A stretch of 64,000 nt of DNA from a virus. Made by a program: the position numbers and the translations under genes. The notes beneath the pieces were generated by a model, which saw nothing but the letters and a program-made list of their open reading frames with translations, had not been told where the DNA came from and searched no databases. How positions within the stretch are numbered: position 1 is the first letter of the stretch; every line of letters starts with the position of its first letter. The stretch lies in the IMG/VR virus record IMGVR_UViG_3300045988_115635, positions 1-64,000 of that record, one strand, 5' to 3'. Below, in pieces: positions 3,864 to 37,767 of this stretch.

Positions 3864-3891
3864 GAGGGGTGATATTTCACCCCTCATTTTT
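3864..3891 (+). terminator. rho-independent terminator after the recombinase gene
   Basis: GAGGGGTGA-tatt-TCACCCCTC hairpin followed by ATTTTTT. Confidence 0.7.
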
Positions 3892-3894
3892 TAA

Positions 3895-4239
3895 TATGAA
3901 TCTTTATCCCTAGTAGAGGTTGAGGTTACACCATTTACTAATAACGTTCCTGACACGTCAACCTTTGAATGCTTTGCTGTGCCTGCATTACGCATGTGCT
4001 TTGTACGAGCACATATCGACGGTGCTAAAGGCGCTCATCCGTCTGGTCAGAGTTGGACAGTAGGAAACATCACTGACGAGGAGTATATCCCTGCAAACAA
4101 TTTCGATCTTTATGGATCGGCATCTAACAATGCAGCTATGCGTCCTTATGTGTGGTCGGATGGTCAGTTTGTTATCAAAAATCAGGGTCAAACACAAGCA
4201 GGAACGTCATTTAGTTTAAGCGGTTTTTGGTTCTACTAG
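3895..4239 (+). other. start-less open frame (115 codons) ending in TAG immediately before site Sa; possible decayed or silent C-terminal cassette
   Basis: open from the TAA at 3892; only a GTG at 3979 as start, no RBS; stop TAG 4237-4239 is one nt before GCATTCTATAT. Confidence 0.4.
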
Positions 4240-4256
4240 AGCATTCTATATCCCTG
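4240..4256 (+). repeat. shufflon site Sa (core TTCTATAT 4244-4251)
   Basis: GCATTCTATATCCCTG; follows TAG of the preceding frame. Confidence 0.7.
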
Positions 4257-4514
4257 ATCAAAACTGGCGAAGCTGTACTAAACAAGGGCGACAATACTAT
4301 CACGTTCAATCAGCCATTTCCTGCTGGTATGTATTACAACGGAGTAGCCGTTATTGCCGCTAACGCATCAGATCATGCAAGCGTCAATGGTAGAAGCGTA
4401 CAGGTTATAGAAGTCACAAGCGACCATATTAAGCTAAGGTTTCTATCCAGCTTTGATTCCATATCGCAAGGTAGCGTTAGATGGATTGCGGTTGCTACTA
4501 AGCAGGAGGGATAG
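4242..4514 (+). other. silent C-terminal cassette a (90 codons, begins HSI, no start codon, no RBS)
   Basis: CAT TCT ATA TCC... open to TAG 4512-4514, which abuts the next site; the track ORF 4227-4514 uses a TTG that reads through the site. Confidence 0.65.
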
Positions 4515-4529
4515 CATTCTATATACCAA
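4513..4529 (+). repeat. shufflon site Sb (core 4517-4524)
   Basis: TAG CATTCTATATACCAA. Confidence 0.7.
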
Positions 4530-4805
4530 TTTGAAGAATTTGATATTGACAGCGGGAGTGTTTCTCCTGGAACTTGGCTTACGATTGATGCACCAACAAA
4601 AGAAGGGTATATAGCAATATCAGCAACCTTTGTTGGAACAATAACAAGTGGAGGTTGGCAATGGATAATCAATAATCCGATATGTTTTCCTGAGTCTAAA
4701 TTAGCAAAAATACGTGTTGTAAACAATAACAATGCAAATGCTGCAATACTAGGTAAAATAATTGTCACGTATCTAAAATCTAAGCTTAACAATGATTCTC
4801 AATAA
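4515..4805 (+). other. silent C-terminal cassette b (96 codons, begins HSI)
   Basis: HSIYQFEEFDIDSG...ISATFVGTITSGGWQWIINNP...NNNNANAAILGKII..; stop TAA 4803-4805; homologous to cassette c. Confidence 0.65.
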
Positions 4806-4850
4806 AATAATTGAAAAACGAACAAATGTTCGAACTCAATAAAATAATTG
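4799..4850. promoter_or_regulatory. LexA/Cheo-box-like dyad CGAACAAATGTTCG (~4819-4832) flanked by CTCAATAAAATAATTGA palindromic arms
   Basis: exact match to the Firmicutes SOS-box pattern CGAAC-N4-GTTCG; one of six related copies in the window. Confidence 0.55.
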
Positions 4851-4862
4851 AGCAAAAAAAAT

Positions 4863-4884
4863 AACCCCCTCAATTGAGGGGGTT
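4863..4884. terminator. bidirectional rho-independent terminator downstream of the endolysin
   Basis: AACCCCCTC-aatt-GAGGGGGTT hairpin with an A-run before and a T-run after. Confidence 0.75.
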
Positions 4885-4890
4885 TTAATT

Positions 4891-6109
4891 TTAATAACGC
4901 AATACCTGACCAGGATAGATTGTGTAAGGTGAAGAAATACCATTCTTAGAAGCAATGGTTTTCCAATTTACGCCTAATTTCTGACCAATCTCTGACAAAG
5001 TATCACCTGATTTAACCGTATAAGTATGGTTAGAAGCAGATGAGCCAGAAGAACCAGGAATGGTGAGACGTTGACCAGGATAAATCAAGTTTACGTTAGT
5101 AATGCCGTTAGCAGATGCAATAGCATTTACAGTAGTACCGTAAGAAGATGCAATTCCTGATAAAGTATCGCCAGACTTTACGGTATACATTACGCCAGAA
5201 GAACCGCCGCCATTTACAATCTTCATAACCTCATCGTAGCGTGAACCTAATACGGTCTTACGCAAATTGCCATTACCGTAAACACCTTCCCAGGTTTCAT
5301 CAGCTAGGGTAGAAGCAGAAGAATTAGAAATATGGTTAATCATTTCTTGTACTTCATCGTAGCGTGAACCTAAAGCCTGCTTACGTGCATCACCATTACC
5401 ATAGTCACCTTGCATTACCTTAGCAACAAGGTCAATAGTACGACCTTCTGGGTCAGAGCCTGTTTCTGGGGTAGAAGGTGTAGGAACAGTAGCATTACCA
5501 GACGGGTCTGCATACTTCATCCATGCTTCAGCGTCCATGTAAGCCTTGTTAAGGTCAAGGTTTCCGCCGTAGCCATTCAATCTACCAGCAGATGAATACT
5601 GACGGATAGCACAGCTATAAGCACCTTCATTCCACGGAGTATCCTGATAGCCAGTAGTATTGTTATTTGCATACTGTGCAACCCATGTACCAGCATTTAA
5701 GCCTGATGCAGTGTCCCAGGGAAATACTGACTTAGAAGAATAAATCAAAGGCGTTACGTTTGTTCTATCCTTTACTCTCTGACAGAATTGGCGCAAATAC
5801 TCAACGTTGCCCCATGCACTGTTTTGACCAGATTCCCAGTCAGCACACAAAATACCTTTACCAATCCAATTGAGAATTGAATCTACAAAATGATCAGCTT
5901 CTGCTGTAGCATTGCCGCCAGAAATGTAATGATAAACGCCAAAAAGCTTACCAGCACTAATACACTGTTCTACCTGACGAACACAGTCGGGTGAAACATA
6001 TGATGTACCCTGGGTAGCCTTGCAGATTACAAAATCTGATGGAACTACAGCTAGGTTGATGCCATTTTGCCAATTTGAAACATCAATACCGTTCATTGCC
6101 ATAATTCGT
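4891..6109 (-). CDS. endolysin: GH25 muramidase + 2 CW_7-like repeats + 2 LysM domains
   Basis: start [12 protein letters not shown] with AAAGGAG RBS (the track ORF extends to 6135); GH25 N-terminus (GIDVSNWQ...[16 protein letters not shown]...GVYHY); repeats [21 protein letters not shown] and [21 protein letters not shown] (CW_7-like); two [15 protein letters not shown] LysM motifs. Confidence 0.9.
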
Positions 6110-6151
6110 TTTCTCCTTTCTTTGCAAAGAAACATACTTCAATTTTAAAAG

Positions 6152-6168
6152 TAGTTTTCTATATCGCA
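6152..6168 (+). repeat. shufflon site Se (core 6157-6164)
   Basis: TAG TTTTCTATATCGCAA immediately beyond the endolysin start region. Confidence 0.7.
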
Positions 6169-6478
6169 ATATGAATTAGAAGATTGTTCTAGTTTGGTAA
6201 CTGCAAAAGATAATTTCAGCGTTGTAGAAGCTAGAGTATTAAAGCTTGGTAACTTAAAAATGCTTTATATTTATGTTTCTTGTTCTAGCTTGCTAAGCAG
6301 TGGTACTAATATCAATGCGTTTAGCGTTTCTGGGGAACTTATTCCAAAACAGAAAATACCAATAAGTTCTGACACCGTAACTGGTTATATAGGTACAAAT
6401 GGTAATTCATGGATGACACTTCAGGTAGCAAGATCATCTAGTCAAAACATAGGTTGTTGTACATGTTTTTACATTTAG
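6155..6478 (+). other. silent C-terminal cassette e (107 codons, begins FSI)
   Basis: TTT TCT ATA TCG CAA... open to TAG 6476-6478, which abuts site Sd; the track ORF 6194-6478 (TTG start) is the same frame. Confidence 0.65.
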
Positions 6479-6492
6479 TTTTCTATATCCCA
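6476..6492 (+). repeat. shufflon site Sd (core 6481-6488)
   Basis: TAG TTTTCTATATCCCAC. Confidence 0.7.
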
Positions 6493-6826
6493 CTACTCAA
6501 CAACCGAAACACCAACGGGCAAAACCTGGATTGATGGCAAGCCGATCTACTGTAAAGTGATCAAGTTCGGCGCGATGACAGGCAACAATCGGTATACCAT
6601 AGCGCATGGTATTTCTTACGACACTATAGTGTCCTTTAGTGCTATTGCCCGCAACTCCACTAATAGTTACTTACCTCTTGCGCGTGTTGGATACAATGGC
6701 GACAATCAGATAGATGCGTCCTTAAACGGTTATGCGTATATCACTCCTGATAATGCAATCATCATTGGAGGCTCGCAGACCAACTACACAGGCGCTACCG
6801 TAATTATTGAGTACACCAAGGCTTAA
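6479..6826 (+). other. silent C-terminal cassette d (115 codons, begins FSI)
   Basis: FSISHYSTTETPTGKTWIDGKPIYCKVIKFGAMTGNN...IIEYTKA*; the track ORF 6557-6826 is its GTG-started tail; ends convergently on the stop of the 152-aa gene. Confidence 0.65.
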
Positions 6827-7281
6827 CTAAGTTTATACCCGATAACTTTAGTGATACCGAGTTTGTCCTGTTTTCGTCTTTCCATAGTGCCGTTGTTCGT
6901 AAAACCAAGTTCACCAACAGCATGGTCAGTGTTTAACGTGCATTGCGTTCCTGATATATTCATACCTTTATAAGCGAACCATAAGTAACCATAAGAAGTT
7001 GACGATGTTGCATTGATTCCGATGGTTTTCCCATTCGGATCAGCAATCCTTTGGGAACCACATATGCCATCATCGTGCTTCCAAAAGAACTCTAAGTAGT
7101 CGTAATTCGCCGCAGAATCGGAGAGCGTAATTGCGTCCTTGGTGCCTTGCTCGCTTTCAAAAAGAGTTTGGGATATAGAATCCCAGTTAGCTTCTAAAGT
7201 CGATAATCGCTGGTCAATCGCGTCTCCATCAATAATTAACTGTGTGTCACCGCTCGTATTTTTGCCATATACTTTACCCAT
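6823..7281 (-). CDS. expressed shufflon gene: 33-aa constant N-terminus + DSIS crossover + 115-aa variable C-terminal domain; putative receptor-binding/tail-fibre tip protein
   Basis: the only properly initiated gene in the region (AAAGGAG-8nt-ATG); codons 34-37 GAT TCT ATA TCC are the inverted copy of the site; N-terminus (IDQRLSTLEANW) predicted helical. Confidence 0.7.
   Translation of the reverse strand: MGKVYGKNTSGDTQLIIDGDAIDQRLSTLEANWDSISQTLFESEQGTKDAITLSDSAANYDYLEFFWKHDDGICGSQRIADPNGKTIGINATSSTSYGYLWFAYKGMNISGTQCTLNTDHAVGELGFTNNGTMERRKQDKLGITKVIGYKLS
7170..7184 (-). repeat. shufflon site S0, the only minus-orientation copy (core rc of 7174-7181), inside the 152-aa gene
   Basis: minus strand reads GGGATTCTATATCCC. 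Confidence 0.7.
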
Positions 7282-7314
7282 ATTTTTAACTCCTTTTAGA
7301 GGTGCTTTTAAAAA

Positions 7315-7343
7315 ATTATAGTAGATAGTTTTCTATATATCAA
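7315..7343 (-). promoter_or_regulatory. sigma-A-like promoter of the 152-aa gene: TTGATA-17-TATAAT, with the -35 overlapping site Sf
   Basis: -10 TATAAT = rc 7315-7320; -35 TTGATA = rc 7338-7343; 17-nt spacer. Confidence 0.5.
7326..7342 (+). repeat. shufflon site Sf (core 7331-7338)
   Basis: TAG TTTTCTATATATCAA immediately upstream of the 152-aa gene promoter. Confidence 0.7.
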
Positions 7344-7595
7344 AGTAAAACATATTCTAAAAGTTTGACAATTGGAGCTGGTGCAACAGGAGACTTTTCA
7401 GCAACTCTTGATACACCTGGTGGATATATGCCTGTAGGGGTTACAGCAATAACAACTGGGCAAGTAAAATGGACACTCGTTCAGTTCGAAATCAATGTTG
7501 AAAATAACTACCTAGTTGCTTCAATTCATAGTGTTGACACTTCTAGCAGAACATCAACTGTTGCTATGTCAGTAGCGTTTATAAAGGTGAGTTAG
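7329..7595 (+). other. silent C-terminal cassette f (88 codons, begins FSI)
   Basis: FSIYQSKTYSKSLTIGAGATGDF...AFIKVS*; the track ORF 7365-7595 (TTG) is the same frame; TAG 7593-7595 abuts site Sc. Confidence 0.65.
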
Positions 7596-7609
7596 CATTC
7601 TATAGGCTT
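7593..7609 (+). repeat. shufflon site Sc (core TTCTATAG 7598-7605, one mismatch)
   Basis: TAG CATTCTATAGGC. Confidence 0.6.
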
Positions 7610-7892
7610 TTATTTTGGTGTTCAAAGCGTAGATACTGGCAACATAGATTCAAACGTAAGTTCTTGGCAAACAATTCCCTATGTAGAGGGATATTTACCT
7701 GTTAGTGTTTGCTTTGTTGGATATTACACAAATGGTTCAAGATGGATTGTAAGTAACCCTATGGAAATAACCGATAATGAAAGTCACATAACGTTAGTAA
7801 GAATGTTTAATAACAATGATACGGTTTCTGCTGCTAAAGGTGATTTAGAGATTATATATATAAAAAGATCGTTGTTTGAAAACCTTAGCTAG
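7596..7892 (+). other. silent C-terminal cassette c (98 codons, begins HSI)
   Basis: HSIGFYFGVQSVDTGN...VCFVGYYTNGSRWIVSNP...NNNDTVSAAKGDLEIIYIKRSLFENLS*; homologous to cassette b; not in the ORF track because it has no start. Confidence 0.65.
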
Positions 7893-8199
7893 TTTCAGTA
7901 GGTACAGCAATAAGAGTAACGCTATCGGGAGCGTCAGAAACATCACCAACGTATACTTCTTTAGAGTTCTGCATAGCGGTGTTAATCATCGTTTGAATTT
8001 GGGTTTGGTCCAAGTATTGAGCAGGTGAATAGTCCTGTAAAATTTCTTTAGTATTAGCATCACGTCTGACTACAACAGGTGTTGGAATACCGTTAACAAC
8101 TTTAACCCCATACATAATTTCTTGTATGGGGTGTGAAGTATCATCTACTACATAACCATTAGAAAGTAGTACGTCTATGCCTGTTGTGCTTTCTGACAT
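7885..8199 (-). CDS. hypothetical protein (104 aa)
   Basis: ORF; tight coupling with the upstream gene. Confidence 0.55.
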   Translation of the reverse strand: MSESTTGIDVLLSNGYVVDDTSHPIQEIMYGVKVVNGIPTPVVVRRDANTKEILQDYSPAQYLDQTQIQTMINTAMQNSKEVYVGDVSDAPDSVTLIAVPTETS

Positions 8200-8624
8200 T
8201 AGTCTACGTGAATTTCTTTCATCTCACCGTTGATATTTTTAATTCTAAGACCGCTCACGTGCTCCCAGCCGTCCGTTTCTAAAGAATTAGGAGAGTTAAT
8301 CGCTTTTGAGTAAACTGCCGCCTTAGAAACGCTTAGATTCCTTCTGGCGTATATTTCAACACCTGCGTAAGAACCAACGTAAGCTTCTTCATCTAAAGGA
8401 TTATCACCAATCTGTTCTAATCCTAACATCTGATAAAGCTGCTCTAGTGGTATGACTTTTACAGTATCGTCATACTCATTGCGTCCTACATATTGTACCT
8501 GAACTTCATCATCACCAACTTCAAGCACAATCATTTTTTTATATACGCCGCCTGGCATAAAATACGGGTCTGAAAAATCTTCAGGCAAGAATTCTGCGCC
8601 AGGTTTAATATCATCGTAATTCAA
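8199..8624 (-). CDS. hypothetical protein (141 aa)
   Basis: ORF; overlapping start/stop with neighbours. Confidence 0.55.
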   Translation of the reverse strand: MNYDDIKPGAEFLPEDFSDPYFMPGGVYKKMIVLEVGDDEVQVQYVGRNEYDDTVKVIPLEQLYQMLGLEQIGDNPLDEEAYVGSYAGVEIYARRNLSVSKAAVYSKAINSPNSLETDGWEHVSGLRIKNINGEMKEIHVD

Positions 8625-8821
8625 CGTTTATCACCAGCCAAAAAAGCAAGACTAAATAAAGCAGCAACCATAACAGTTAAACAAGCTTCTACTACACCTT
8701 GTGAAGCTATGATAACAGCTATGATTGCTATAACAATAAAAGAAGGAAACCTAATATCTTTTGTACGCCTTGAATTTTGAGCGATCTTCTTATAACGCTC
8801 GTATGCCTGTTTAGTAGTCAT
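8621..8821 (-). CDS. small membrane protein (66 aa); holin candidate
   Basis: long hydrophobic core FPSFIVIAIIAVIIASQGVVEACLTVMVAALFSLAFLAG with charged ends. Confidence 0.45.
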   Translation of the reverse strand: MTTKQAYERYKKIAQNSRRTKDIRFPSFIVIAIIAVIIASQGVVEACLTVMVAALFSLAFLAGDKR

Positions 8822-9619: not shown

Positions 9620-9910
9620 CTATAGCTTGTTGTATTTTCTAAACTTATTGCGCTTCTTAAAGCGCCTGTATTTTCTGCTGTAAGTTCTTAGAATTTCGTC
9701 TAACATTAAGCAGTTTGTTTGCTCAACAGTTTCTGGGAGGGTAGTCAGATAAGGGTAATGTTTCTTATCGTCTATCAAAGTTTTAAAGATTAAATCTAGC
9801 GCGAATTGAGCATCTATAGGAGGGTCGCATAGTTCAGACTTATTGCCTTTGTACCAATTATCAATTTGGCTTTGAAACCCTTCAAAAGATATTTCTTCGT
9901 CCCATTCCAT
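9620..9910 (-). CDS. hypothetical protein (96 aa)
   Basis: ORF. Confidence 0.5.
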   Translation of the reverse strand: MEWDEEISFEGFQSQIDNWYKGNKSELCDPPIDAQFALDLIFKTLIDDKKHYPYLTTLPETVEQTNCLMLDEILRTYSRKYRRFKKRNKFRKYNKL

Positions 9911-9918
9911 GACTACCT

Positions 9919-9994
9919 TCTAAAAAAATGGTGCGCCTGGTAGGATTCGAACCTACAACCTTCAGATTAGAAGTCTGCTTCTCTTTCCGTTGAG
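9919..9994 (-). tRNA. tRNA-Arg (anticodon UCU), CCA encoded
   Basis: rc = GCGCCTG-TA-TCTC-AACGGAAA-GAGA-A-GCAGA-CTTCTAA-TCTGA-AGGTT-GTAGG-TTCGAAT-CCTAC-CAGGCGC-A-CCA; 7-bp acceptor stem, GTTCGAAT T-loop, anticodon loop CUUCUAA. Confidence 0.85.
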
Positions 9995-10398
9995 ATACAG
10001 GCGCAAATAATGTAAAGCTTTAACCCTTAACCTTGTCTTTACTGACAGACACCCAATATTGTCTACTAGTCCGTCTTCCCTCGCCCGTTCGCTGGTACTT
10101 TATGCTGTATTTTCCCTGCAAACACTAAGCCCGTGCTCTGTGGTTAACAGCCTATCACGCTGCTCCACGCACGTACTCTTTGCTTTAACAGCAATCAGCA
10201 AAGAGGTGATTAAAGACCCTCCTAACTTTTTGAGCCTATAGAGACAAAGAAAGTAGGAGGGCGAGTTTATACCTTGCGTCCTCCTACTAACGATTAGGAG
10301 GGTTTTTGAACCCAAAAACAATATACGAATTGTAAAACAATTTGTCAATTAAAAATTGAGAAAATGTGATAATCTTTACTTACCAAATAGGAGGAATC

Positions 10399-10947
10399 AT
10401 GAAAGAACTTGATAGCAAACTTATAGAAGACGCTAATATGATTAGCTTTTCTGGTCGTACAGGCGATATGTTTAATGAGGATTATAAAAACGCCTGTAAA
10501 GTCATTGAACAGCTTGGTGATGATAGTTTATACGATGATGCTTATAAACTATTTACTAAAGCCTTAGAAGCAAATGCGTCATGGGTATCACCTATTGTTG
10601 CTGGTCCTTCTAAATACAAACAAAACGATAAAAAGCTAGACCGTATCATTCATATAAACCAAGATATTGCAGATTTTATAGACGAACTTAACGAAAAGTT
10701 AGAAGTTAAGAAAAAGCGTGATGCTGGCGTTAGTGAACACGATGAATTTGTTCAAAAGAAGATAAAAGAAGCTATAGCTACCATTCGCTTTGTTGGTGAT
10801 CTCAATAAACCACTTTGTTATGAAACTATTCTTGAATTAGCTGATATTGATATAGAAGCATTTAAGAAGCTATACAGAACTTATGACAAAGTATACGGAA
10901 TTTCAAAAAGATCAAAGGTATATAAACGATATAAATTAAGCATCTAA
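10399..10947 (+). CDS. hypothetical protein (182 aa); one of only two plus-strand genes outside the shufflon
   Basis: TAGGAGG RBS + ATG (MKELDSKLIED); the track ORF starts at 10366. Confidence 0.55.
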   Translation: MKELDSKLIEDANMISFSGRTGDMFNEDYKNACKVIEQLGDDSLYDDAYKLFTKALEANASWVSPIVAGPSKYKQNDKKLDRIIHINQDIADFIDELNEKLEVKKKRDAGVSEHDEFVQKKIKEAIATIRFVGDLNKPLCYETILELADIDIEAFKKLYRTYDKVYGISKRSKVYKRYKLSI

Positions 10948-11685: not shown

Positions 11686-12108
11686 TTAGCCGAATTCAAG
11701 TTTAAACATATCTAAGAGCGAATTGTTATCATAAGTAAACCCGTACAAGCATTGCAGCAAGTTTAGATGAAATACTCTTATCATTCGCTCGTAATCTTGC
11801 TCGTAGTTATTCTCAAATAAGAATTCTACATTACAACCTACTGTTGCTTCATTTTCATCTGGTTTTTCTATTTTATGCTCTTTAGCAAAGGTTTCAACGC
11901 TACTAATTTTGTCACCTTTTACAACTACACTTAATGTCGCTACCAAAAATGGTTCTACGCCGTCAACCTCATTTATAAATTGCAAAAGTTCAGCATCAAC
12001 CTTTTTCACATAGCAGTGATCTCTTTCTAGTGACAGAAAAGAGCCTACCCTACCCATAAGATCATCGGCTATCAGTGGTAGTTGTTTTTCTATAAATGCT
12101 TTGTCCAT
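11686..12108 (-). CDS. hypothetical protein (140 aa)
   Basis: ORF. Confidence 0.5.
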   Translation of the reverse strand: MDKAFIEKQLPLIADDLMGRVGSFLSLERDHCYVKKVDAELLQFINEVDGVEPFLVATLSVVVKGDKISSVETFAKEHKIEKPDENEATVGCNVEFLFENNYEQDYERMIRVFHLNLLQCLYGFTYDNNSLLDMFKLEFG

Positions 12109-13115
12109 ACTCTCTCTATTCTCTCACCAATCCATCTAATGACAGGTACTGCCATAGAGTTACCTAACGCCTTGTAACGCCTTGAATCTGATGCTGGCTT
12201 ACCTTTATAGGGAATTTGCGTATACCCGTCTGAAAAGCCCTGTAAACGCTCGCATTCGGTAGGAGTTAAGTATCTTACTGTATCTTCTTGCAAAACTACA
12301 GGACTAGAACCACCAACTTTTAACGCACCGCAAAGTTCTTCGTTGCAAGAAGCTTTAGAGGTTAAATCAGCTAGACAAATAACAGCGTGTCTATCAGTAG
12401 CAGTAACAGTAAACGCACCATCAATTTCAGGGTTTCTCACACCTGTATGATGTCCGCCATTTTCTAGCTTTCTACCTATGATATTGCCTGCTATCTCATA
12501 GCAGCTTTCTCTAAGGCTCGTTCCATTCTTATTGGCAATTTCCTTCCTCGCGTCCTTACTCTCTTTAACACCCCCCCCACACTCTTCGGGGTCAAACAAT
12601 ACTTCTGCGCTGGTTGTGTCTCCAAGGCTTCCGACAAGGTAGATACGCTTGCGTCTCTGGGGTAATCCGAAAAATTGCGCATCCAATACTCGCCACGATA
12701 AGCAATACCCGCTTTCTTCCAACCCCCTAAGCAATTGTCCGAAAGCATTCCCGTGTTCGACCGATAACGCCCCTGGGACGTTTTCCCAGATGAGAAACTT
12801 AGGCAAGATTTCGTGAATACATCGAATGTATTCGAACATAAGCCCTGATTCTCCTTTAAGCCCTTCTCGCTTTCCTGCATATGAGAATGACTGGCAAGGT
12901 GTTCCTCCGATAACGATGTCTGTTTTTCCACGGTATTTGCTCCAATCAATTTGGGTTGTATCACCTAAGTTAGGTACGTTTGGATAGTGATATTTAAGTA
13001 ATTCACAGCAGTAATCATCAATTTCAGAAAATGCTACAGGCTCCCAACCCAAAGGCTTGAAAGCTACTGTAGCTGCTTCTATACCACTAAAAGTAGAGAT
13101 GTATTTTAGGTTCAT
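12090..13115 (-). CDS. DNA (cytosine-5)-methyltransferase
   Basis: motif I FSGIEA, motif IV GGTPCQSFS, ENVPG motif. Confidence 0.85.
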   Translation of the reverse strand: MNLKYISTFSGIEAATVAFKPLGWEPVAFSEIDDYCCELLKYHYPNVPNLGDTTQIDWSKYRGKTDIVIGGTPCQSFSYAGKREGLKGESGLMFEYIRCIHEILPKFLIWENVPGALSVEHGNAFGQLLRGLEESGYCLSWRVLDAQFFGLPQRRKRIYLVGSLGDTTSAEVLFDPEECGGGVKESKDARKEIANKNGTSLRESCYEIAGNIIGRKLENGGHHTGVRNPEIDGAFTVTATDRHAVICLADLTSKASCNEELCGALKVGGSSPVVLQEDTVRYLTPTECERLQGFSDGYTQIPYKGKPASDSRRYKALGNSMAVPVIRWIGERIERVWTKHL

Positions 13116-16506: not shown

Positions 16507-16962
16507 TTAATCCTTATCAAAAACACCATATTTGTCGTTTATCACAATATCTCCTGTACAGTTTGTCGCAATTGTGTCTGGTCTATCAAGATTACCTGTA
16601 CAGTTATTTGCGGTTGTATCTTGTTCGACAAAGTTGTGAGCATAAATGCTGTATGAAAGTTGAAAGTCGTTATTTGCCATTGCAAAAACTTCTTGTAAAC
16701 AGTTAGCCATGCCATTAATGCCGTACATAACAGTATTTTCTAAGATTTCATCACCTGCATTTGGAGACTTGTCTTTACGCTTTCTCATTTTAGATTCGTA
16801 CTTTTGAAGCTTAAGAATAAGTTGTTCATACGCTTCACCAATTTCTAAAGCAAGCACAATAGCTTTCTGTTCTTCTTTAGAAAAGGTAGTAGAGTTGCCT
16901 AAGAACCTCTTAATAGAACGACCAATAACATTTTCTTCTTGGTTAGTTTCTTTATTTTTCAT
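16507..16962 (-). CDS. hypothetical protein (151 aa)
   Basis: ORF. Confidence 0.5.
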   Translation of the reverse strand: MKNKETNQEENVIGRSIKRFLGNSTTFSKEEQKAIVLALEIGEAYEQLILKLQKYESKMRKRKDKSPNAGDEILENTVMYGINGMANCLQEVFAMANNDFQLSYSIYAHNFVEQDTTANNCTGNLDRPDTIATNCTGDIVINDKYGVFDKD

Positions 16963-17245
16963 CGCATTTAACCTCGTCTAGTTTTCCTGATAAATACATT
17001 TGCATAGCAGCCATAGCTATTCTTGAAACATGAAAATACCAATCATCAAAATCTCTTTTACCCCCTTTTTCGACACCTTTCATTTGAGTTAGCATTTCAC
17101 GCAAAGCATCAAGATCATCTTTCATGCTTTCTTTGCAAGATTCTGTAAATTTCCAATCATTACTAAATTGGAACATTTGAAAAGTAGTAGCACTAGAATC
17201 TAGTGCTACTTGCGCCTTATTCATACTTTTCTCCTTTAGCATCAA
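16952..17245 (-). CDS. hypothetical protein (97 aa)
   Basis: ORF. Confidence 0.5.
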   Translation of the reverse strand: MMLKEKSMNKAQVALDSSATTFQMFQFSNDWKFTESCKESMKDDLDALREMLTQMKGVEKGGKRDFDDWYFHVSRIAMAAMQMYLSGKLDEVKCDEK

Positions 17246-17478
17246 TAATTGTTGGTTTTTTCGGAATAAGCATTAATCACTTTTTCAAGAACAAGTTCAG
17301 TCTCATCACCTTTGGAGTAATAAACCCTCACAAGCGTTTTCTTTTCATTCCTAATAGGGATAAGCGACACACGAACACTATCAGCTTCATACATACGCTT
17401 AATGACTTCACTCAACGTAAAGATTTCAGTATAATCATCAATGATTGCGCGTTCTGCTGCATTCTTGGGTTCTAACAT
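17242..17478 (-). CDS. hypothetical protein (78 aa)
   Basis: ORF. Confidence 0.5.
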   Translation of the reverse strand: MLEPKNAAERAIIDDYTEIFTLSEVIKRMYEADSVRVSLIPIRNEKKTLVRVYYSKGDETELVLEKVINAYSEKTNNY

Positions 17479-17486
17479 CGTTCCTC

Positions 17487-17750
17487 CTAAAATTGATACA
17501 CCAAAAAAGGTTCATCGTTTTCGTTAAAGCTGTAAACACAGAAACAGCCAGTGTATATGTCAAACTCGCAAGCACAGCCATTTTCAAGACCGAACAAATC
17601 TTCAAAGGTATATTGAATAATTTGATACTGCTTATAAAAGGCGTTCCAAACATACTCTGGGCAATCCTGGGGCAATGCTTTCCAGGAACGGTATGAATCT
17701 TCAAACTTTTTAAGAACCATACGCTCGGTTTCATTCTTTGCTCTAATCAT
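17487..17750 (-). CDS. hypothetical protein (87 aa)
   Basis: ORF. Confidence 0.5.
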   Translation of the reverse strand: MIRAKNETERMVLKKFEDSYRSWKALPQDCPEYVWNAFYKQYQIIQYTFEDLFGLENGCACEFDIYTGCFCVYSFNENDEPFLVYQF

Positions 17751-17759
17751 GGTTAACTC

Positions 17760-18068
17760 CTAAATGCTCGTCTCTTTTAAAAGATTGTTCTTAAAGAAGT
17801 TGTTTTTGTAAGCCAACCAATTAGGAATAGAAACCTCTACCCAGTTGCTTACGCCTGATTTGATTTCTTCTTCACTGAACAAACGGTTCTCGTCATAGTA
17901 GGGTTCAAGTTCGGTAATAGTCGTTTGAGACTTTGGCAACCAAACAACGCCATACTCTTTGTTAGAGTAGGAGTAATCATGCGAAACCGAATACTTAACA
18001 CCAAAGGCTTTTTCAGTTTCAATAAAATCATCTTTGAGAGCGTAGAAGCTAAAATCTGAACGCTTCAT
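17760..18068 (-). CDS. hypothetical protein (102 aa)
   Basis: AAAGGAGG RBS + ATG (MKRSDFSF); the track extension to 18107 translates the promoter/RBS region. Confidence 0.55.
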   Translation of the reverse strand: MKRSDFSFYALKDDFIETEKAFGVKYSVSHDYSYSNKEYGVVWLPKSQTTITELEPYYDENRLFSEEEIKSGVSNWVEVSIPNWLAYKNNFFKNNLLKETSI

Positions 18069-18089
18069 GATATTTCCTCCTTTAAGTTG

Positions 18090-18172
18090 GTAAAACCATT
18101 GTAGCATAATTTTCTTAATTTTTGTTTTACATTATGAAAATATAAAAAATAGAGGTAGTTTTACTACCTCTA
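18090..18172 (-). promoter_or_regulatory. terminator hairpin (18143-18172) followed by the conserved promoter element (..ATGTAAAACAAAAATTAAGAAAATTATGCTACAAT)
   Basis: AGAGGTAGT-ttt-ACTACCTCT hairpin + T-run on the minus strand, then the conserved element with -10 TACAAT. Confidence 0.5.
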
Positions 18173-18910
18173 CTCATTGTCGAATCTTTCTTCAAGGTCG
18201 AATACCGTTTTGCCGTCCCTTCTAAAGGGAATATCTATTCGACTTTGTAACCCTTTTAACCTTTCCCAGTAAAAGGGGAGATATTTTCTGATAGCTCGCA
18301 ACTCTTTCAGGTTTTTGTTTCTACAACACCAACAAGAAGCACGATCTAAAACATCATATAAATCAATGCCGTTTTCATTCCAATCAAACCCATGTTCACG
18401 ACAATACTGTAAACAATCTTTTTCAGTCATGCCCCATTCAATCAAGGGATAAATCTTATTAGGTTTGATTCTATGTTGTTCGTCTGCTGCAATACCTACA
18501 TACTCCACATACTCGCCCAGGCTCTTTTGATATTTGTCTATAGCCTGGTTTTTGATGGTAGTCATCCATCTGGTATTAGCACCGCACCAATCATAGCCAT
18601 ACTTACATGTACCGTCTCTTTTATTGACTGGTTTAGCAAACATTAACATTAGAAAAGATTCTTTAGGTTCAAGTCTTACTAGTTCGGCTCCGTATTCTTT
18701 AATAATCGGTTCAGCTTTATCAACATTTCTTTTTACTGATTCAAAATTCATGCCCTCATCAAAGTTAACAACCTTAGTAAGAGGTTTGTTTTCTTCAATG
18801 AGTTTCAATACCATTGCCAAGCTATCCTTACCGCCTGACAGACTTGCAATAAATTCCATAGCACCATGTGCAAAACCTTTGCAACATGGATACCTTAATT
18901 GGCTTCCCAT
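18170..18910 (-). CDS. PAPS-reductase-family (PP-loop ATP pyrophosphatase) protein
   Basis: SLSGGKDS PP-loop motif near the N-terminus; C-terminal Cys cluster CWCC; true start may be the internal MEFIASL. Confidence 0.65.
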   Translation of the reverse strand: MGSQLRYPCCKGFAHGAMEFIASLSGGKDSLAMVLKLIEENKPLTKVVNFDEGMNFESVKRNVDKAEPIIKEYGAELVRLEPKESFLMLMFAKPVNKRDGTCKYGYDWCGANTRWMTTIKNQAIDKYQKSLGEYVEYVGIAADEQHRIKPNKIYPLIEWGMTEKDCLQYCREHGFDWNENGIDLYDVLDRASCWCCRNKNLKELRAIRKYLPFYWERLKGLQSRIDIPFRRDGKTVFDLEERFDNE

Positions 18911-34557: not shown

Positions 34558-37500
34558 TTACTCTGTCTTAATTGGCATAAAGTGTTCAAGAATATAATTA
34601 TCTTCATCATTTCTAAGTTGCTTTTTCAACTCAAAAATAAAATATGATTCATTTTTTAAGTACATGCGTATTTTTTCGAATATGTCAGTAAACGCTACAA
34701 CTTCAAGTTCGAACCCCTCACTTTCGCACTTAATAAAAGCCATAGGTTTACCCTTTTTTGTGGTGATACGTCTAAAACTCGTAACCATAGCAAGCGTAGC
34801 GAACTTTTCTGTATAGTCCACAAAGTTAATCGCGTTACCATTCTTTAGCGCGTCTTTGTATGGTTTCACAATTTCTAATACCTCTGCGTACGGGTCATAA
34901 GTAATAGGCATACCTATTAAGTCTTTTTCGTTTTCAATTATTTCTTTTTTAGCGTAAGCAGGTTGTTCTTCCGTAAACCTTTCTTGGAGCGATTCTCCGA
35001 AAAGGTTTCGAGCAGTGTCGTTAGCTTCATACCTAAAAAGTAGGTCCTTAGAATTTGGATACCACTCACGGAAAAACCCTGCCATTATTAATGATTTCAT
35101 AACGCCAGAATTAGCACCTGATCTTGTTACAAAATCATCAAAATCTGTATAAGGAGCGTTTTCAGCAATCTTTACTACTGCTTTATCACCTACGCCGCGC
35201 AATGAACCAATGCCAATAGCAATAGTTTCATCATCTAAAATAACCCAATCATCAGCTATGTTTGTCACAGTAGGCATAACAATTTTAATACCGTTATCTC
35301 TAGCTTCACGCATGTACCTTGGTAAATCTTCCGATGGTACTGTTTGAAAGCATGAACAATAAAACTCAATAGGGTAGTTATATTTCATCCATGCCGTCCA
35401 AAAAGCTAAGACAGCATAAGCGTATGAATGAGCCTTATTAAAGGAGTAAGAACCAGAAGCCTTGATTTGATTAAAAATTGTTTCTGCTTGCTGTACTGAT
35501 ATACCGCTGTGGTCAACACAACCTTGAACAAATTTAGGCTCTTCTTTTTCCATCTCCTTTAGCTTCTTTTTGCCAATAATGGCTCTCATGTGGTCTGCTT
35601 CTAATGGAGTATAACCAGCCAAAGCACGGCAAATACTCATAGCTTGTTCTTGGTAAACAATTACGCCATAAGTCTCTTTTAGAATAGGCTCTAATTGTGG
35701 TACTACGTATTCAACAGGTTCGCGCCCTGTTTTACGATTGATAAATACTTGCAACATACCAGCCAAAATAACACCTGGTCGATACAACGCTAAAATTGTT
35801 GATAGGTCCATAATGTTATGAGGTAATAATTGCATCGCACATTGTGTAATGTTCTTACCTGATAATTGGAATACGCCTAAAGTATTTCCTGTCTTAAATA
35901 GGTTCCACACACCCTCTTGTGCATCATCTTCAGTAAGCGAATAAAAATCAATGTCCACACCATGACGCTCCTTTACCATTCTTTGGGCGTTGGTTAGCGA
36001 ACTTAAATTTCGCAAACCTAAGAAGTCTGCTTTTAAGAAACCTAAACTTTCAATAGCTACTTTATCGAACTGTGAAACAATATCACCTGTTTTAAGTGAC
36101 AGCCTGGTAGGCATTGCGTTAGATAACTCAATAGGAGAAATAACATAACCACAAGCATGTTGTCCCCATTGTCTAGGAACACCAATCAGGCTAGAAGTGT
36201 GCTTAAACACAGTAGGAAAACGTCCCATCATGCTTTCTAGGTACGTTCTATCCTTATCTTCTAGCAAGTCTAAATGATCATGCCATTCTTTAGGATTCTT
36301 TAGGTTTCTATCAAATACATCAAGAATCTTAGAAACATTTAGTGATTCTTGGTAAGGTATTCTGTAGTAGCGTGCTAGGTCCTGAAAAGCGTTTTTAATC
36401 TTAAAGGTTCCAACTGTACCAACAGCGCAAACATGATCTTTGCCGTACTTTTCATTACAATATTCAACAACATCATGACGTTCTTTATCAGGAAAATCTA
36501 AGTCAATGTCTGGTAAAGAATCAAGCCTGCCCTCATTCAAAAATCGCTGAAAAATAAGACCCTTCCCCATTGGGTCGACCTCTGTAATGTCAGTTGCATA
36601 GCAAAGAATAGAAGCGGTACATGAACCACGTCCAGGACCTACCAGCATATGTTCTTTTGCATATTTATTGTAGTCAGACACTAAAAGAAAATAATCAGCT
36701 AGACCATTATCAAAAATAATGGGCCATTCATTTTCTGTCATTTCTTTAGCATAAGGTACAACTTTTTTAAGGTCCCCGCCCTTGTATTGAATTGTGCCAA
36801 TTTCTTCACCATCAAAGACTTCACAGCCGCCAACTTTTCTAAACAATCCCTTAGCACACAAGTATTTAAGATAGTCGGTACTATCCTTGCCTGCGTCTAT
36901 CCACTTTTGCGGTAAAGGGTATTTAGGTACTTTATGAGATTTATCAAAGTCATAAGGTACTACACGGCTTAATATGCTATCTACCCCATCGAAACAACGT
37001 TCTACATCACCAAGGTATTCAAGGCGTTTTCTTACGTCTTGTTCGTCCATCATGTAATAATCTGCTCGCATACGCATATGATCTTCGTCATAGTGTTTAT
37101 GCATATTGCAGCCAAGCATGATATTTTGAAGTTCGCTATCTTCACGCCTTACGTAATGAGAATCAATAGCATAAATAGTTTTTAAGTCGTGCTTTTTAGC
37201 AAAGTTCATCAACCAAAGATTTACCTTGCGTTGTTCAGGCTCGTTGTTAGTATGAATTTCTACTACAAAATCATCGAAAATAGGCTTTAGCATATCCAAG
37301 AAATATAAAGCCATGTTTTCATCATCATTTTTAGCAGCTACAGACAAAGGACCTGCCAAACAAGCAGAACCACACACTACGCCTTTTCTTCTTGTTCCTA
37401 AATCTTCAACGTAAGTATTGGTGTAAGCGTCTTTACCTTCTTCATGTAGCCATGACTTAGAAGATATATCCCAAACGTTATGTAGACCTTCTTCAGTAGT

Positions 37501-37767
37501 TGCCCAAAGAGTTAAATGGAAACCCTTGCGCGATGAATTGTGATATTTACCATCGCGCAAATATAACTCTGTTCCAAGAATAGGAATTAAGCCGCGCTTT
37601 TTAGCTTCCGTGTATATGTAGTAGTGACCTACACAATGCCCGTGGTCTGTTACAGCAACGTATTTGCTACCAATTTCTAACGCCCTATCGCAAATATCAG
37701 ATGGACTAGCTAGACCATCTAAGAAGCTGTAATAGCTGTGACAGTGTAAATTAGCAAATTCATGCAT
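34558..37767 (-). CDS. dnaE: DNA polymerase III alpha subunit (DnaE-type, N-terminal PHP domain)
   Basis: LHCHSYYSFLDGLASP PHP motif; 1069 aa; polymerase core motifs; start anchored by RBS GAGGT. Confidence 0.85.
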   Translation of the reverse strand: MHEFANLHCHSYYSFLDGLASPSDICDRALEIGSKYVAVTDHGHCVGHYYIYTEAKKRGLIPILGTELYLRDGKYHNSSRKGFHLTLWATTEEGLHNVWDISSKSWLHEEGKDAYTNTYVEDLGTRRKGVVCGSACLAGPLSVAAKNDDENMALYFLDMLKPIFDDFVVEIHTNNEPEQRKVNLWLMNFAKKHDLKTIYAIDSHYVRREDSELQNIMLGCNMHKHYDEDHMRMRADYYMMDEQDVRKRLEYLGDVERCFDGVDSILSRVVPYDFDKSHKVPKYPLPQKWIDAGKDSTDYLKYLCAKGLFRKVGGCEVFDGEEIGTIQYKGGDLKKVVPYAKEMTENEWPIIFDNGLADYFLLVSDYNKYAKEHMLVGPGRGSCTASILCYATDITEVDPMGKGLIFQRFLNEGRLDSLPDIDLDFPDKERHDVVEYCNEKYGKDHVCAVGTVGTFKIKNAFQDLARYYRIPYQESLNVSKILDVFDRNLKNPKEWHDHLDLLEDKDRTYLESMMGRFPTVFKHTSSLIGVPRQWGQHACGYVISPIELSNAMPTRLSLKTGDIVSQFDKVAIESLGFLKADFLGLRNLSSLTNAQRMVKERHGVDIDFYSLTEDDAQEGVWNLFKTGNTLGVFQLSGKNITQCAMQLLPHNIMDLSTILALYRPGVILAGMLQVFINRKTGREPVEYVVPQLEPILKETYGVIVYQEQAMSICRALAGYTPLEADHMRAIIGKKKLKEMEKEEPKFVQGCVDHSGISVQQAETIFNQIKASGSYSFNKAHSYAYAVLAFWTAWMKYNYPIEFYCSCFQTVPSEDLPRYMREARDNGIKIVMPTVTNIADDWVILDDETIAIGIGSLRGVGDKAVVKIAENAPYTDFDDFVTRSGANSGVMKSLIMAGFFREWYPNSKDLLFRYEANDTARNLFGESLQERFTEEQPAYAKKEIIENEKDLIGMPITYDPYAEVLEIVKPYKDALKNGNAINFVDYTEKFATLAMVTSFRRITTKKGKPMAFIKCESEGFELEVVAFTDIFEKIRMYLKNESYFIFELKKQLRNDEDNYILEHFMPIKTE

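Follow-up and report, generated by a model that had tools for sequence, protein, structure and literature searches.

The DNA analyzed here is a stretch of 64,000 nucleotides with a G + C content of 38%, comprising positions 1-64,000 of the IMG/VR virus record IMGVR_UViG_3300045988_115635 (in the following referred to as the window). The locus under study, positions 3895-7892, is a candidate DNA-inversion system (shufflon) that would exchange the C-terminal domain of a small phage tail protein. From left to right, with the coding strand given as a sign, the order of the elements in the window is REC+, a+, b+, LYS-, c+, d+, CONST::e-, f+, g+, g104-, where REC denotes a tyrosine recombinase gene, LYS an endolysin gene, CONST::e the expressed gene consisting of a constant part and the head domain e, and g104 a gene coding for a 104-aa protein (Table 1). 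The remaining letters designate silent cassettes. A preliminary description of the region had listed six of these as start-less reading frames of 88-115 codons that open with (H/F)SI, in frame, after each plus-strand crossover site, and all six were recovered with these properties; an eighth in-frame cassette at the left edge of the array (cassette 0) had been overlooked. At 38% G + C, chance does not account for seven open frames with 88 codons or more. The homology of the cassettes at 4515-4805 and 7596-7892 also proved correct (36% identity, E 1e-15). Cassette d is convergent with the expressed gene, and the stop codons of both overlap (TTAA).

The crossover sites share the asymmetric 7-nt core TTCTATA. 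A direct scan retrieved the same seven sites as described before, six on the plus and one on the minus strand, the latter lying inside the sole expressed gene of 152 codons, where it forms codons 34-37 (GAT TCT ATA TCC = DSIS); a GGAG ribosome-binding site was found for this gene. Three details required revision. The 8-mer TTCTATAT does occur on the minus strand, but at 7173-7180 instead of 7174-7181. It is not common to all sites either: the site at 7598 reads TTCTATAG, so that the truly common core is 7 nt long. The TAG codon directly in front of each plus-strand site was found again, but the spacer at site a measures 2 nt (4240-4241) and not 1 nt. On both strands of the 64 kb TTCTATA is present in 24 copies, 8 of them within 3895-7892, and 6 of the 11 copies of TTCTATAT in the window (4.5 expected) lie inside the 4-kb locus. 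Only the expressed site is fully symmetric, a property that had escaped the preliminary description. In the silent sites the right arm is conserved (consensus TCCCA), except for the atypical arm GGCTT at 7598, and the left arm is degenerate, (T/G)AG(C/T)(A/T), with the stop codon of the preceding cassette built into this left half-site. The adenine at position -4 is found in 30/30 and the guanine at -3 in 29/30 distinct silent sites. As both bases are nearly invariant even where the upstream stop codon is TAA or more distant, they are part of the site and do not reflect the stop codon alone.

For comparison, 12 loci including the window were mapped, the contigs having been chosen for encoding database proteins that match the expressed protein, and the inversions were observed by this comparison between related genomes. 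The related metagenomic genomes, whose flanks are 97-99% identical to the window, contain the same sites with permuted cassette order and with core-bounded segments inverted, as had been anticipated. A 431-bp segment that reaches exactly from one core to another, those of the expressed site and of site g (window 7174-7604), is 100% identical but inverted in locus L001, and window 7592-8700 is collinear with L001 at 98%. The constant segment and cassette f are located on the opposite strand in both L001 and L011, again at 100% identity; the constant segment is invertible because cassettes flank it on both sides. In L013 (10072-11283) and L014 the endolysin gene has the opposite orientation with respect to the flanking operon, and cassettes b and c are inverted along with it; cassette b is also present in L011. 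Neither the endolysin gene within the array nor the inversion of the constant segment and of the endolysin gene had been recognized before. The rearranged maps include REC+, b+, LYS-, c+, d+, e-, f-, CONST::N1+, g+, g104- (L011), REC+, N3+, N15+, d+, e-, c-, LYS+, b-, CONST::N14-, f+, N1+, g+, g104- (L013), and LYS-, d+, N17-, CONST::c-, f+ ... (L018). Six loci with 50 sites contained 30 distinct silent junctions, and the heptamer is the precise point at which their flanks reassort: 5 different cassettes were found joined to the end of c and 4 to that of f, whereas 4 different cassette ends occur in front of g. Altogether, 25 cassette families were distinguished across the 12 mapped loci, with 8-11 cassettes per genome and stored heads of 88-119 codons. 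Inversions of the expressed site with silent sites opposed to it were explored by breadth-first search for the nine loci in which the array is sufficiently covered. Every map proved to be either zero (window, L007, L015) or one constant-site inversion (L001, L011, L013, L018, L019, and the partial map of L010) away from an arrangement with all silent cassettes opposed to the expressed gene.

Table 1. Features of the shufflon locus and its borders in the window (core, TTCTATA unless indicated otherwise).
Feature	Position	Strand	Remarks
Collagen-like tail-fibre gene	1-2865	minus	955 codons without stop, runs off the left window end; divergent from the recombinase gene
Tyrosine recombinase gene, 290 aa	2985-3857	plus	presumed invertase, probable Rin homologue
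Bidirectional terminator-like hairpin	3864-3885		after the recombinase gene; fixed left boundary of the array
Boundary cassette 0	3898-4239	plus	113 codons, ESLS...; degenerate core ATCTTTA at 3900-3906
Silent cassette a	4242-4514	plus	90 codons; core 4244-4250
Silent cassette b	4515-4805	plus	96 codons; core 4517-4523; homologous to g
Bidirectional terminator	4863-4884		separates cassette b from the end of the endolysin gene
Endolysin gene, 403 aa	4891-6102	minus	GH25 + CW_7 + LysM (Pfam); ATG at 6102 with GGAG site, in agreement with 403-aa homologues
Promoter-like element across site c	6142-6169	minus	-35 TTGCGA, -10 TAAAAT; 9/12 consensus matches
Silent cassette c	6155-6478	plus	107 codons; core 6157-6163
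Silent cassette d	6479-6826	plus	115 codons; core 6481-6487
Expressed gene, 152 aa	6823-7281	minus	constant residues 1-33, junction DSIS 34-37, head domain e
Expressed crossover site	7169-7185	minus	TGGGA-TTCTATA-TCCCA, perfect inverted repeat; core 7174-7180
Constant segment	7181-7330	minus	150 bp: codons 1-33, ribosome-binding site, -10 box
Sigma-70-like promoter match across site f	7315-7343	minus	-35 TTGATA, -10 TATAAT; 11/12 matches, best of the region
Silent cassette f	7329-7595	plus	88 codons; core 7331-7337
Silent cassette g	7596-7892	plus	98 codons; core 7598-7604
Gene g104, 104 aa	7885-8199	minus	fixed right boundary; first gene of the flanking minus-strand operon; collinear in all relatives

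Since a core of 7 nt is too short for homologous recombination, the maps bear the signature of site-specific inversion. This speaks against the notion of a fossil array, according to which sites and cassettes are relics and the genomes differ through homologous recombination or module exchange in co-infection, with no programmed inversion at present. Such an origin would fit the identity of one configuration across 12 contigs, the differences in cassette content that exceed what inversion alone can produce, and the decay of boundary cassette 0, which is degenerate in the window and frameshifted in L011. It is nevertheless very unlikely, as the breakpoints coincide with the short core, the segments were flipped at 100% identity, all maps can be reached via inversions between opposed sites, and an intact recombinase gene with 97-99% nucleotide conservation is found beside every array. 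The silent cassettes also stay open, with an overall pN/pS of about 0.40, which fits intermittent expression.

A second line of evidence is provided by natural fusions. Dozens of metagenomic proteins are nearly identical to the expressed protein over residues 1-33/37 and unrelated to it after DSI(S). The constant N-terminus was found fused to more than 15 unrelated C-termini, a count that represents a lower bound, being derived from a search with the whole expressed protein; a few proteins diverge one or more residues earlier. Fusions predicted from the window were present among the database proteins, namely const::c (P0024, and also in L018), const::d-type (P0020), const::0-type (P0034), and const::f-like (P0032). 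Other matches to the expressed protein were silent tandem cassettes with head e after (F/H)SIS. Core-bounded inversions, natural fusions, and maps reachable by inversion thus support the earlier proposal of a multiple-inversion shufflon that joins a constant N-terminus to alternative C-terminal cassettes. Look-ups of the tandem-cassette proteins P0003 and P0005 for heterogeneity within a sample returned other samples only. One protein of 192 aa (P0060) combines the N-terminus of an L015-type recombinase with the body of cassette d at the common motif KPIYR, and probably represents a chimeric assembly or a microhomology deletion.

The juxtaposition of cassettes also permits a different explanation, in which TAG is read as a sense codon (genetic code 15) and the pairs a+b, c+d, and f+g are single genes joined by read-through. 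These pairs are indeed contiguous in frame across TAG, and database gene calls for P0003-P0005 carry Q at the TAG positions. However, TAG terminates 19/73 long open reading frames (ORFs) in the window, the sole tRNA is Arg(TCT) with no suppressor tRNA present, and the frames have neither start codons nor ribosome-binding sites. Under translation table 11 the genes of P0003 and P0005 fail to yield the stored proteins, which identifies the Q residues as an artefact of gene calling. TAG recoding was therefore rejected as extremely improbable, with TAG acting as a normal stop codon. P0003, P0004, and P0005 originate from short array contigs (L029, L030), for which the gene caller evidently picked an alternative genetic code.

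The recombinase beside the array has Pfam matches to Phage_integrase (4.6e-14) and SAM_3 only and no arm-binding domain; by sequence, its match in the PDB is XerD (E 8e-8), and residues R138, K176, R236, H259, and Y269 are conserved. It accompanies the array in the window, L001, L007, L011, L013, L015, and L019. Its best matches among 50,697 phage records are 'integrases' of the Bifidobacterium phage PMBT6 and of Siphoviridae sp. ctl617 (38-40% identity, E ~1e-56), both encoded between tail-fibre and lysin genes, and a genome scan revealed further relatives in metagenome-assembled genomes (MAGs) of Bifidobacterium angulatum and Adlercreutzia. The recombinase genes of PMBT6 and ctl617 are ringed by repeats of both orientations, TAGC(A/T)TTCCGTAACCC and, opposite to it, TGGGATTCCGTAACCC, and TTCCGTAACCC sites also occur at the recombinase locus of the B. 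angulatum MAG. The sites of PMBT6 and ctl617 (TAGCATTCCGTAACCC / TGGGATTCCGTAACCC) are homologous to those of the window, which follow the same grammar, TAG(C/T)(A/T)TTCTATATCCC and TGGGATTCTATATCCCA, with the flanks TAGyw and TGGGA in common.

A system of this type was first reported in 2018, when Rin was described by Mavrich et al. as the first phage-encoded tyrosine invertase system, which in prophages of Bifidobacterium breve and B. longum swaps C-termini (Rv) of about 100 aa of a receptor-binding protein (RBP) behind a constant N-terminus (Rc) at the 11-bp rix site TTCCCTAACCC (PMC6109161); the same system with H-lectin cassettes exists in Eggerthella lenta prophages (PMC8778435). The published rix sequence was not found in the fetched loci, where the relatives use TTCCGTAACCC, one base off rix, and the window site TTCTATATCCC matches rix at 8/11 positions. 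Recombinase homology was measured against the relatives from PMBT6, ctl617, and the B. angulatum MAG, the latter also falling within 38-40% identity (E ~1e-56). The homology of both recombinase and sites to the Bifidobacterium phage loci indicates a shufflon of the Rin family and not a new kind of system, and we regard it as very probable that the locus is a Rin-family multiple-inversion shufflon by which the head domain of a small tail-tip RBP is varied.

The inversions are most probably driven by the adjacent recombinase, to judge from its homology and position. Alternatively, they might be real but catalyzed in trans by another enzyme of host or phage, with the neighbouring gene coding for an integrase or serving another function. 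PHROGs and database records do label this recombinase and its relatives 'integrase'. This alternative is highly improbable, as the 290-aa XerD-like protein is devoid of an arm-binding domain, flanks the array in every full-length locus including that of the unrelated temperate phage in L015, and has homologues in Bifidobacterium phages that likewise lie beside homologous sites; Rin loci, moreover, are organized alike (PMC6109161).

In the proposed mechanism, the recombinase would bring together the expressed site and a silent site of opposite orientation, with strand exchange inside the core and inversion of all DNA in between; a candidate substrate pair is an expressed-type site TGGGATTCTATATCCCA together with an inverted silent-type site TAGCATTCTATATCCC. 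The inversion would fuse the constant hairpin and helix in frame to a new head at the hinge DSI(S), and the displaced head would stay behind a stop codon as a silent cassette. In this manner each of the seven or eight tail-tip domains in store could be linked to the 33-residue start, which would probably alter the range of bacteria to which the phage attaches. Some inversions would flip the segment with promoter and N-terminus, and others the block that contains the endolysin gene. Switching may proceed at an appreciable rate within the population. Whether deletion between direct repeats is prevented has also been raised as an open question for Rin (PMC6109161).

The AlphaFold2 model of the expressed protein (pLDDT 89.6) consists of a beta-hairpin (residues 3-18), a helix (19-34), and a beta-sandwich (37-149), which places the crossover codons at a hinge. 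Foldseek retrieved a baseplate chain of Staphylococcus phage phi812 as top match (9euf_8, E 1.4e-6, TM 0.64) and, from phage K, C-terminal domains of gp144, its receptor-binding protein. When a const::d-type fusion was modelled (const::d', pLDDT 76), the N-terminal architecture proved to be the same, and comparison of this model with the PDB gave no significant match, only weak ones to R-pyocin fibres (TM ~0.35). Several cassette types contain H-type lectin (H_lectin) domains, and cassette a has a weak Pfam match, below the cut-off, to the tail-fibre C-terminal domain Gp53-like_C (7.7e-5). Heads e and d are found at the C-termini of many otherwise different fibre-like proteins.

Fold similarity, the H-lectin cassettes, and the paralogous genes of phage LE2-3 (see below) indirectly support a receptor-binding role, from which we infer that the variable protein determines host range. 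A real shufflon whose product has another task, for example as fibre cap, decoration protein, or decoy, is unlikely in our opinion. It would be in line with the significant structural match being confined to the e-type head, the d-type having none, and with the lack of Pfam matches for most cassettes. On the other hand, the matches obtained are receptor-binding and baseplate proteins, some cassettes have carbohydrate-binding H_lectin domains, e and d heads terminate the fibre-like proteins mentioned above, the gene adjoins that of the collagen-like fibre, and two of the four LE2-3 paralogues have annotations, tail fibre protein in one case and structural protein in the other.

Some observations weigh against the proposed shufflon or parts of it. 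The fold similarity that suggests receptor binding comes from cassette type e only. In the recombinase, Asn234 replaces the first His of the HxxR box, although the same holds for three aligned relatives. The leftmost site has a degenerate core, and the right arm of site g is atypical. Loci L001-L006 are one identical configuration from several samples, and with no map more than one inversion away from the ground state the switching rate could be low. The different cassette contents of the genomes, finally, require processes besides inversion.

The leftmost cassette is intact in the window, frameshifted in L011 (6670-7015), and has a different body in L001 (5540-5935), but its degenerate core is kept in all three genomes. 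Cassette 0 is probably immobile; its type is expressed elsewhere (P0034, L023). In L001 the expressed cassette N13 (10102-10432, P0018) is joined through the non-canonical right arm AACAT instead of TCCCA. The configuration of this locus is identical in 12 contigs from several samples and may be a locked variant.

The presence of an unrelated lysis gene within a segment of a shufflon is unusual. The endolysin gene is adjoined by cassette c in 7/8 mapped loci that contain it, the exception being L018, where it is adjoined by d, and the constant segment borders with its upstream side on cassette f in 11/12 mapped loci (wherever both are on the contig). The promoter-like elements at these two sites were identified by a consensus scan. 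Their -35 hexamers (TTGATA at f, TTGCGA at c) are the reverse complements of the right arms of the respective sites, and the -10 boxes are part of the fixed flanks that precede the RBP gene and the endolysin gene, respectively. The predicted elements straddle the sites and would permit transcription of both genes whichever way these are oriented.

The carrier contigs are about 94-110 kb long and encode a DnaE-type polymerase, a DnaB helicase, and baseplate proteins. A megablast search of the locus against 50,697 phage records gave no match, and an IMG/VR scan with the recombinase alone found no relative. The exact 19-mer AACTGGGATTCTATATCCC was absent from 185,579 species genomes and present in 2 IMG/VR contigs. 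The nearest isolate is Eggerthella phage LE2-3 (MW679026; 112 kb, 63% G + C), for which no literature was found. Its DnaE polymerase is 67% identical in protein sequence to that of the window (34558-37767, minus strand), and the difference between 38 and 63% G + C is a large compositional gap for related phages.

Phage LE2-3 possesses a syntenic region, bordered by the GH25 lysin on one side and by the collagen-like fibre gene with RtcB on the other. Four genes in this region (LE23_36-39, 16824-18849) code for proteins of 146-166 aa with N-termini homologous to the constant part (...RLSSLEAK...) and differing heads; LE23_37 is annotated as tail fibre protein and LE23_39 as structural protein. 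In contrast to the single expressed gene with silent cassettes in the window, these are four complete paralogues that can each be started separately. No recombinase was detected at the syntenic position, and matching sites are lacking there as well, apart from one chance match to the loose pattern TTCnnTAnCCC. The LE2-3 gene syntenic with the collagen-like fibre gene is designated 'putative tail fiber protein 1'. In the window, the collagen-like fibre comprises 106 G-X-Y triplets in 11 runs, and its homologue in L001 and L011 has 1361-1364 aa. The fibre gene also contains a 378-nt tandem duplication at 1399-2197 (2.1 copies, 97% identical).

Further genes were noted to the right of the array. 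A 96-aa protein (9620-9910, minus strand) matches the Pfam family Tad8, a type II Thoeris inhibitor (E 6e-26), so that this gene, 1.7 kb from the shufflon, is likely an anti-defence gene. Genes for tRNA-Arg(TCT) (9929-10004, minus strand) and a C-5 cytosine DNA methylase (12090-13115, minus strand) belong to the flanking operon.

Cassettes are not confined to close relatives. The convergent e/d module (window 6473-7188) is 94.8% identical on the nucleotide level to positions 10106-10821 of L015. The latter is a temperate siphovirus-like prophage, unrelated to the window phage, in which the constant region is of another type, the recombinase is only 43% identical, and the host contig has 43% G + C. 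No similarity between both sequences exists beyond the two cores, which suggests that cassettes are transferred between phages at the sites. This second family of constant regions, that of L015, occurs in the e state (P0002) and the d state (P0051, P0053, P0059, P0078), and a third N-terminus uses the DSIS junction (P0058). It is conceivable, and put forward here tentatively, that TTCTATA sites delimit a shared mobile pool of head cassettes exchanged by site-specific recombination in an integron-like manner between unrelated phages, namely the present one of roughly 100 kb and carriers of at least two other types of constant region, a temperate siphovirus among them, and that the right arms, read on the other strand (TTGGGA/TTGATA/TTGCGA), would serve as -35 elements so that RBP and endolysin are expressed in every isomer.

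Like Rin, the locus has an armless XerD-like tyrosine invertase at its edge, a short asymmetric site that precedes every start-less cassette (about 90-120 aa) and recurs within the expressed gene of the putative RBP, inversions at these sites, and H-lectin cassettes, and the sites of the window and of PMBT6/ctl617 share TAGyw / TGGGA and TTC..TA.CCC. New compared with known Rin loci are the constant part of only 33 residues (168 in Rin) on a self-inverting 150-bp segment with its own putative promoter and cassettes on both sides, the repertoire of 8-11 cassettes per genome (about 5 in Rin), the endolysin gene within the invertible region, and the sharing of cassettes with an unrelated temperate phage. 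The core, TTCTATA, differs as well, and so do the carriers, being DnaE-encoding genomes of about 94-110 kb and 38% G + C instead of temperate siphoviruses of about 40 kb and high G + C content.

The preliminary description had named the shufflon of R64 and the tail-fibre switches of Mu, P1, and p15B as models; their logic is shared, but the probably homologous Rin is closer. The R64/IncI1 shufflon (Rci, sfx, pilV) resembles the locus in its tyrosine recombinase, multiple inversions of segments singly or in groups, a 7-bp asymmetric core with one conserved and one variable arm, and a constant N-terminus with alternative adhesin C-termini. It differs in acting on a pilus adhesin instead of a phage tail protein and in a presumably unrelated site sequence, the likeness being one of logic only. 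Rci has a C-terminal extension, which the 290-aa recombinase of the window does not. Mu Gin, P1 Cin, and p15B Min are phage-encoded and also swap tail-fibre C-termini for host range by inversion, Min with multiple segments. However, these are serine invertases that act with an enhancer and Fis, and the segments of the window contain no accompanying fibre-assembly genes. The only recombinase of the locus belongs to the tyrosine family, and the ORFs of the region included none recognized as a serine recombinase. Nor was a reverse transcriptase noticed among these ORFs that would point to a diversity-generating retroelement, an idea not pursued by a dedicated search. A tail-fibre shufflon with three cassettes and the 10-bp motif TGGGAGAACT is known from BV01-like Phocaeicola phages, which are temperate phages of Bacteroidota (PMC13596623). 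It too is a phage-encoded multi-cassette array beside a recombinase and overlaps the distal end of a tail-fibre gene; its configurations have been seen in reads, and it is likened here by description only.

The locus extends the known phage RBP shufflons with tyrosine invertases beyond small temperate prophages of Actinobacteria to a large, polymerase-encoding phage of low G + C content. Its repertoire, 8-11 cassettes in each genome and no fewer than 25 head families in the population, is the largest of this kind in the present analysis, and the locus represents a natural kit of swappable heads of 90-120 aa on a 33-aa adaptor. For the handling of sequence data it is relevant that such loci interrupt assemblies, that silent cassettes end up annotated as genes, and that gene callers testing alternative codes mis-assign code 15 to short array contigs. 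The contrast to LE2-3, with four full paralogues and no recombinase, leads to a testable view of how arrays of multiple RBP genes and shufflons may be interconverted. One genome could in principle give rise to many receptor specificities, which would bear on the prediction of host range, the dynamics of phages and bacteria in the gut, and phage engineering.

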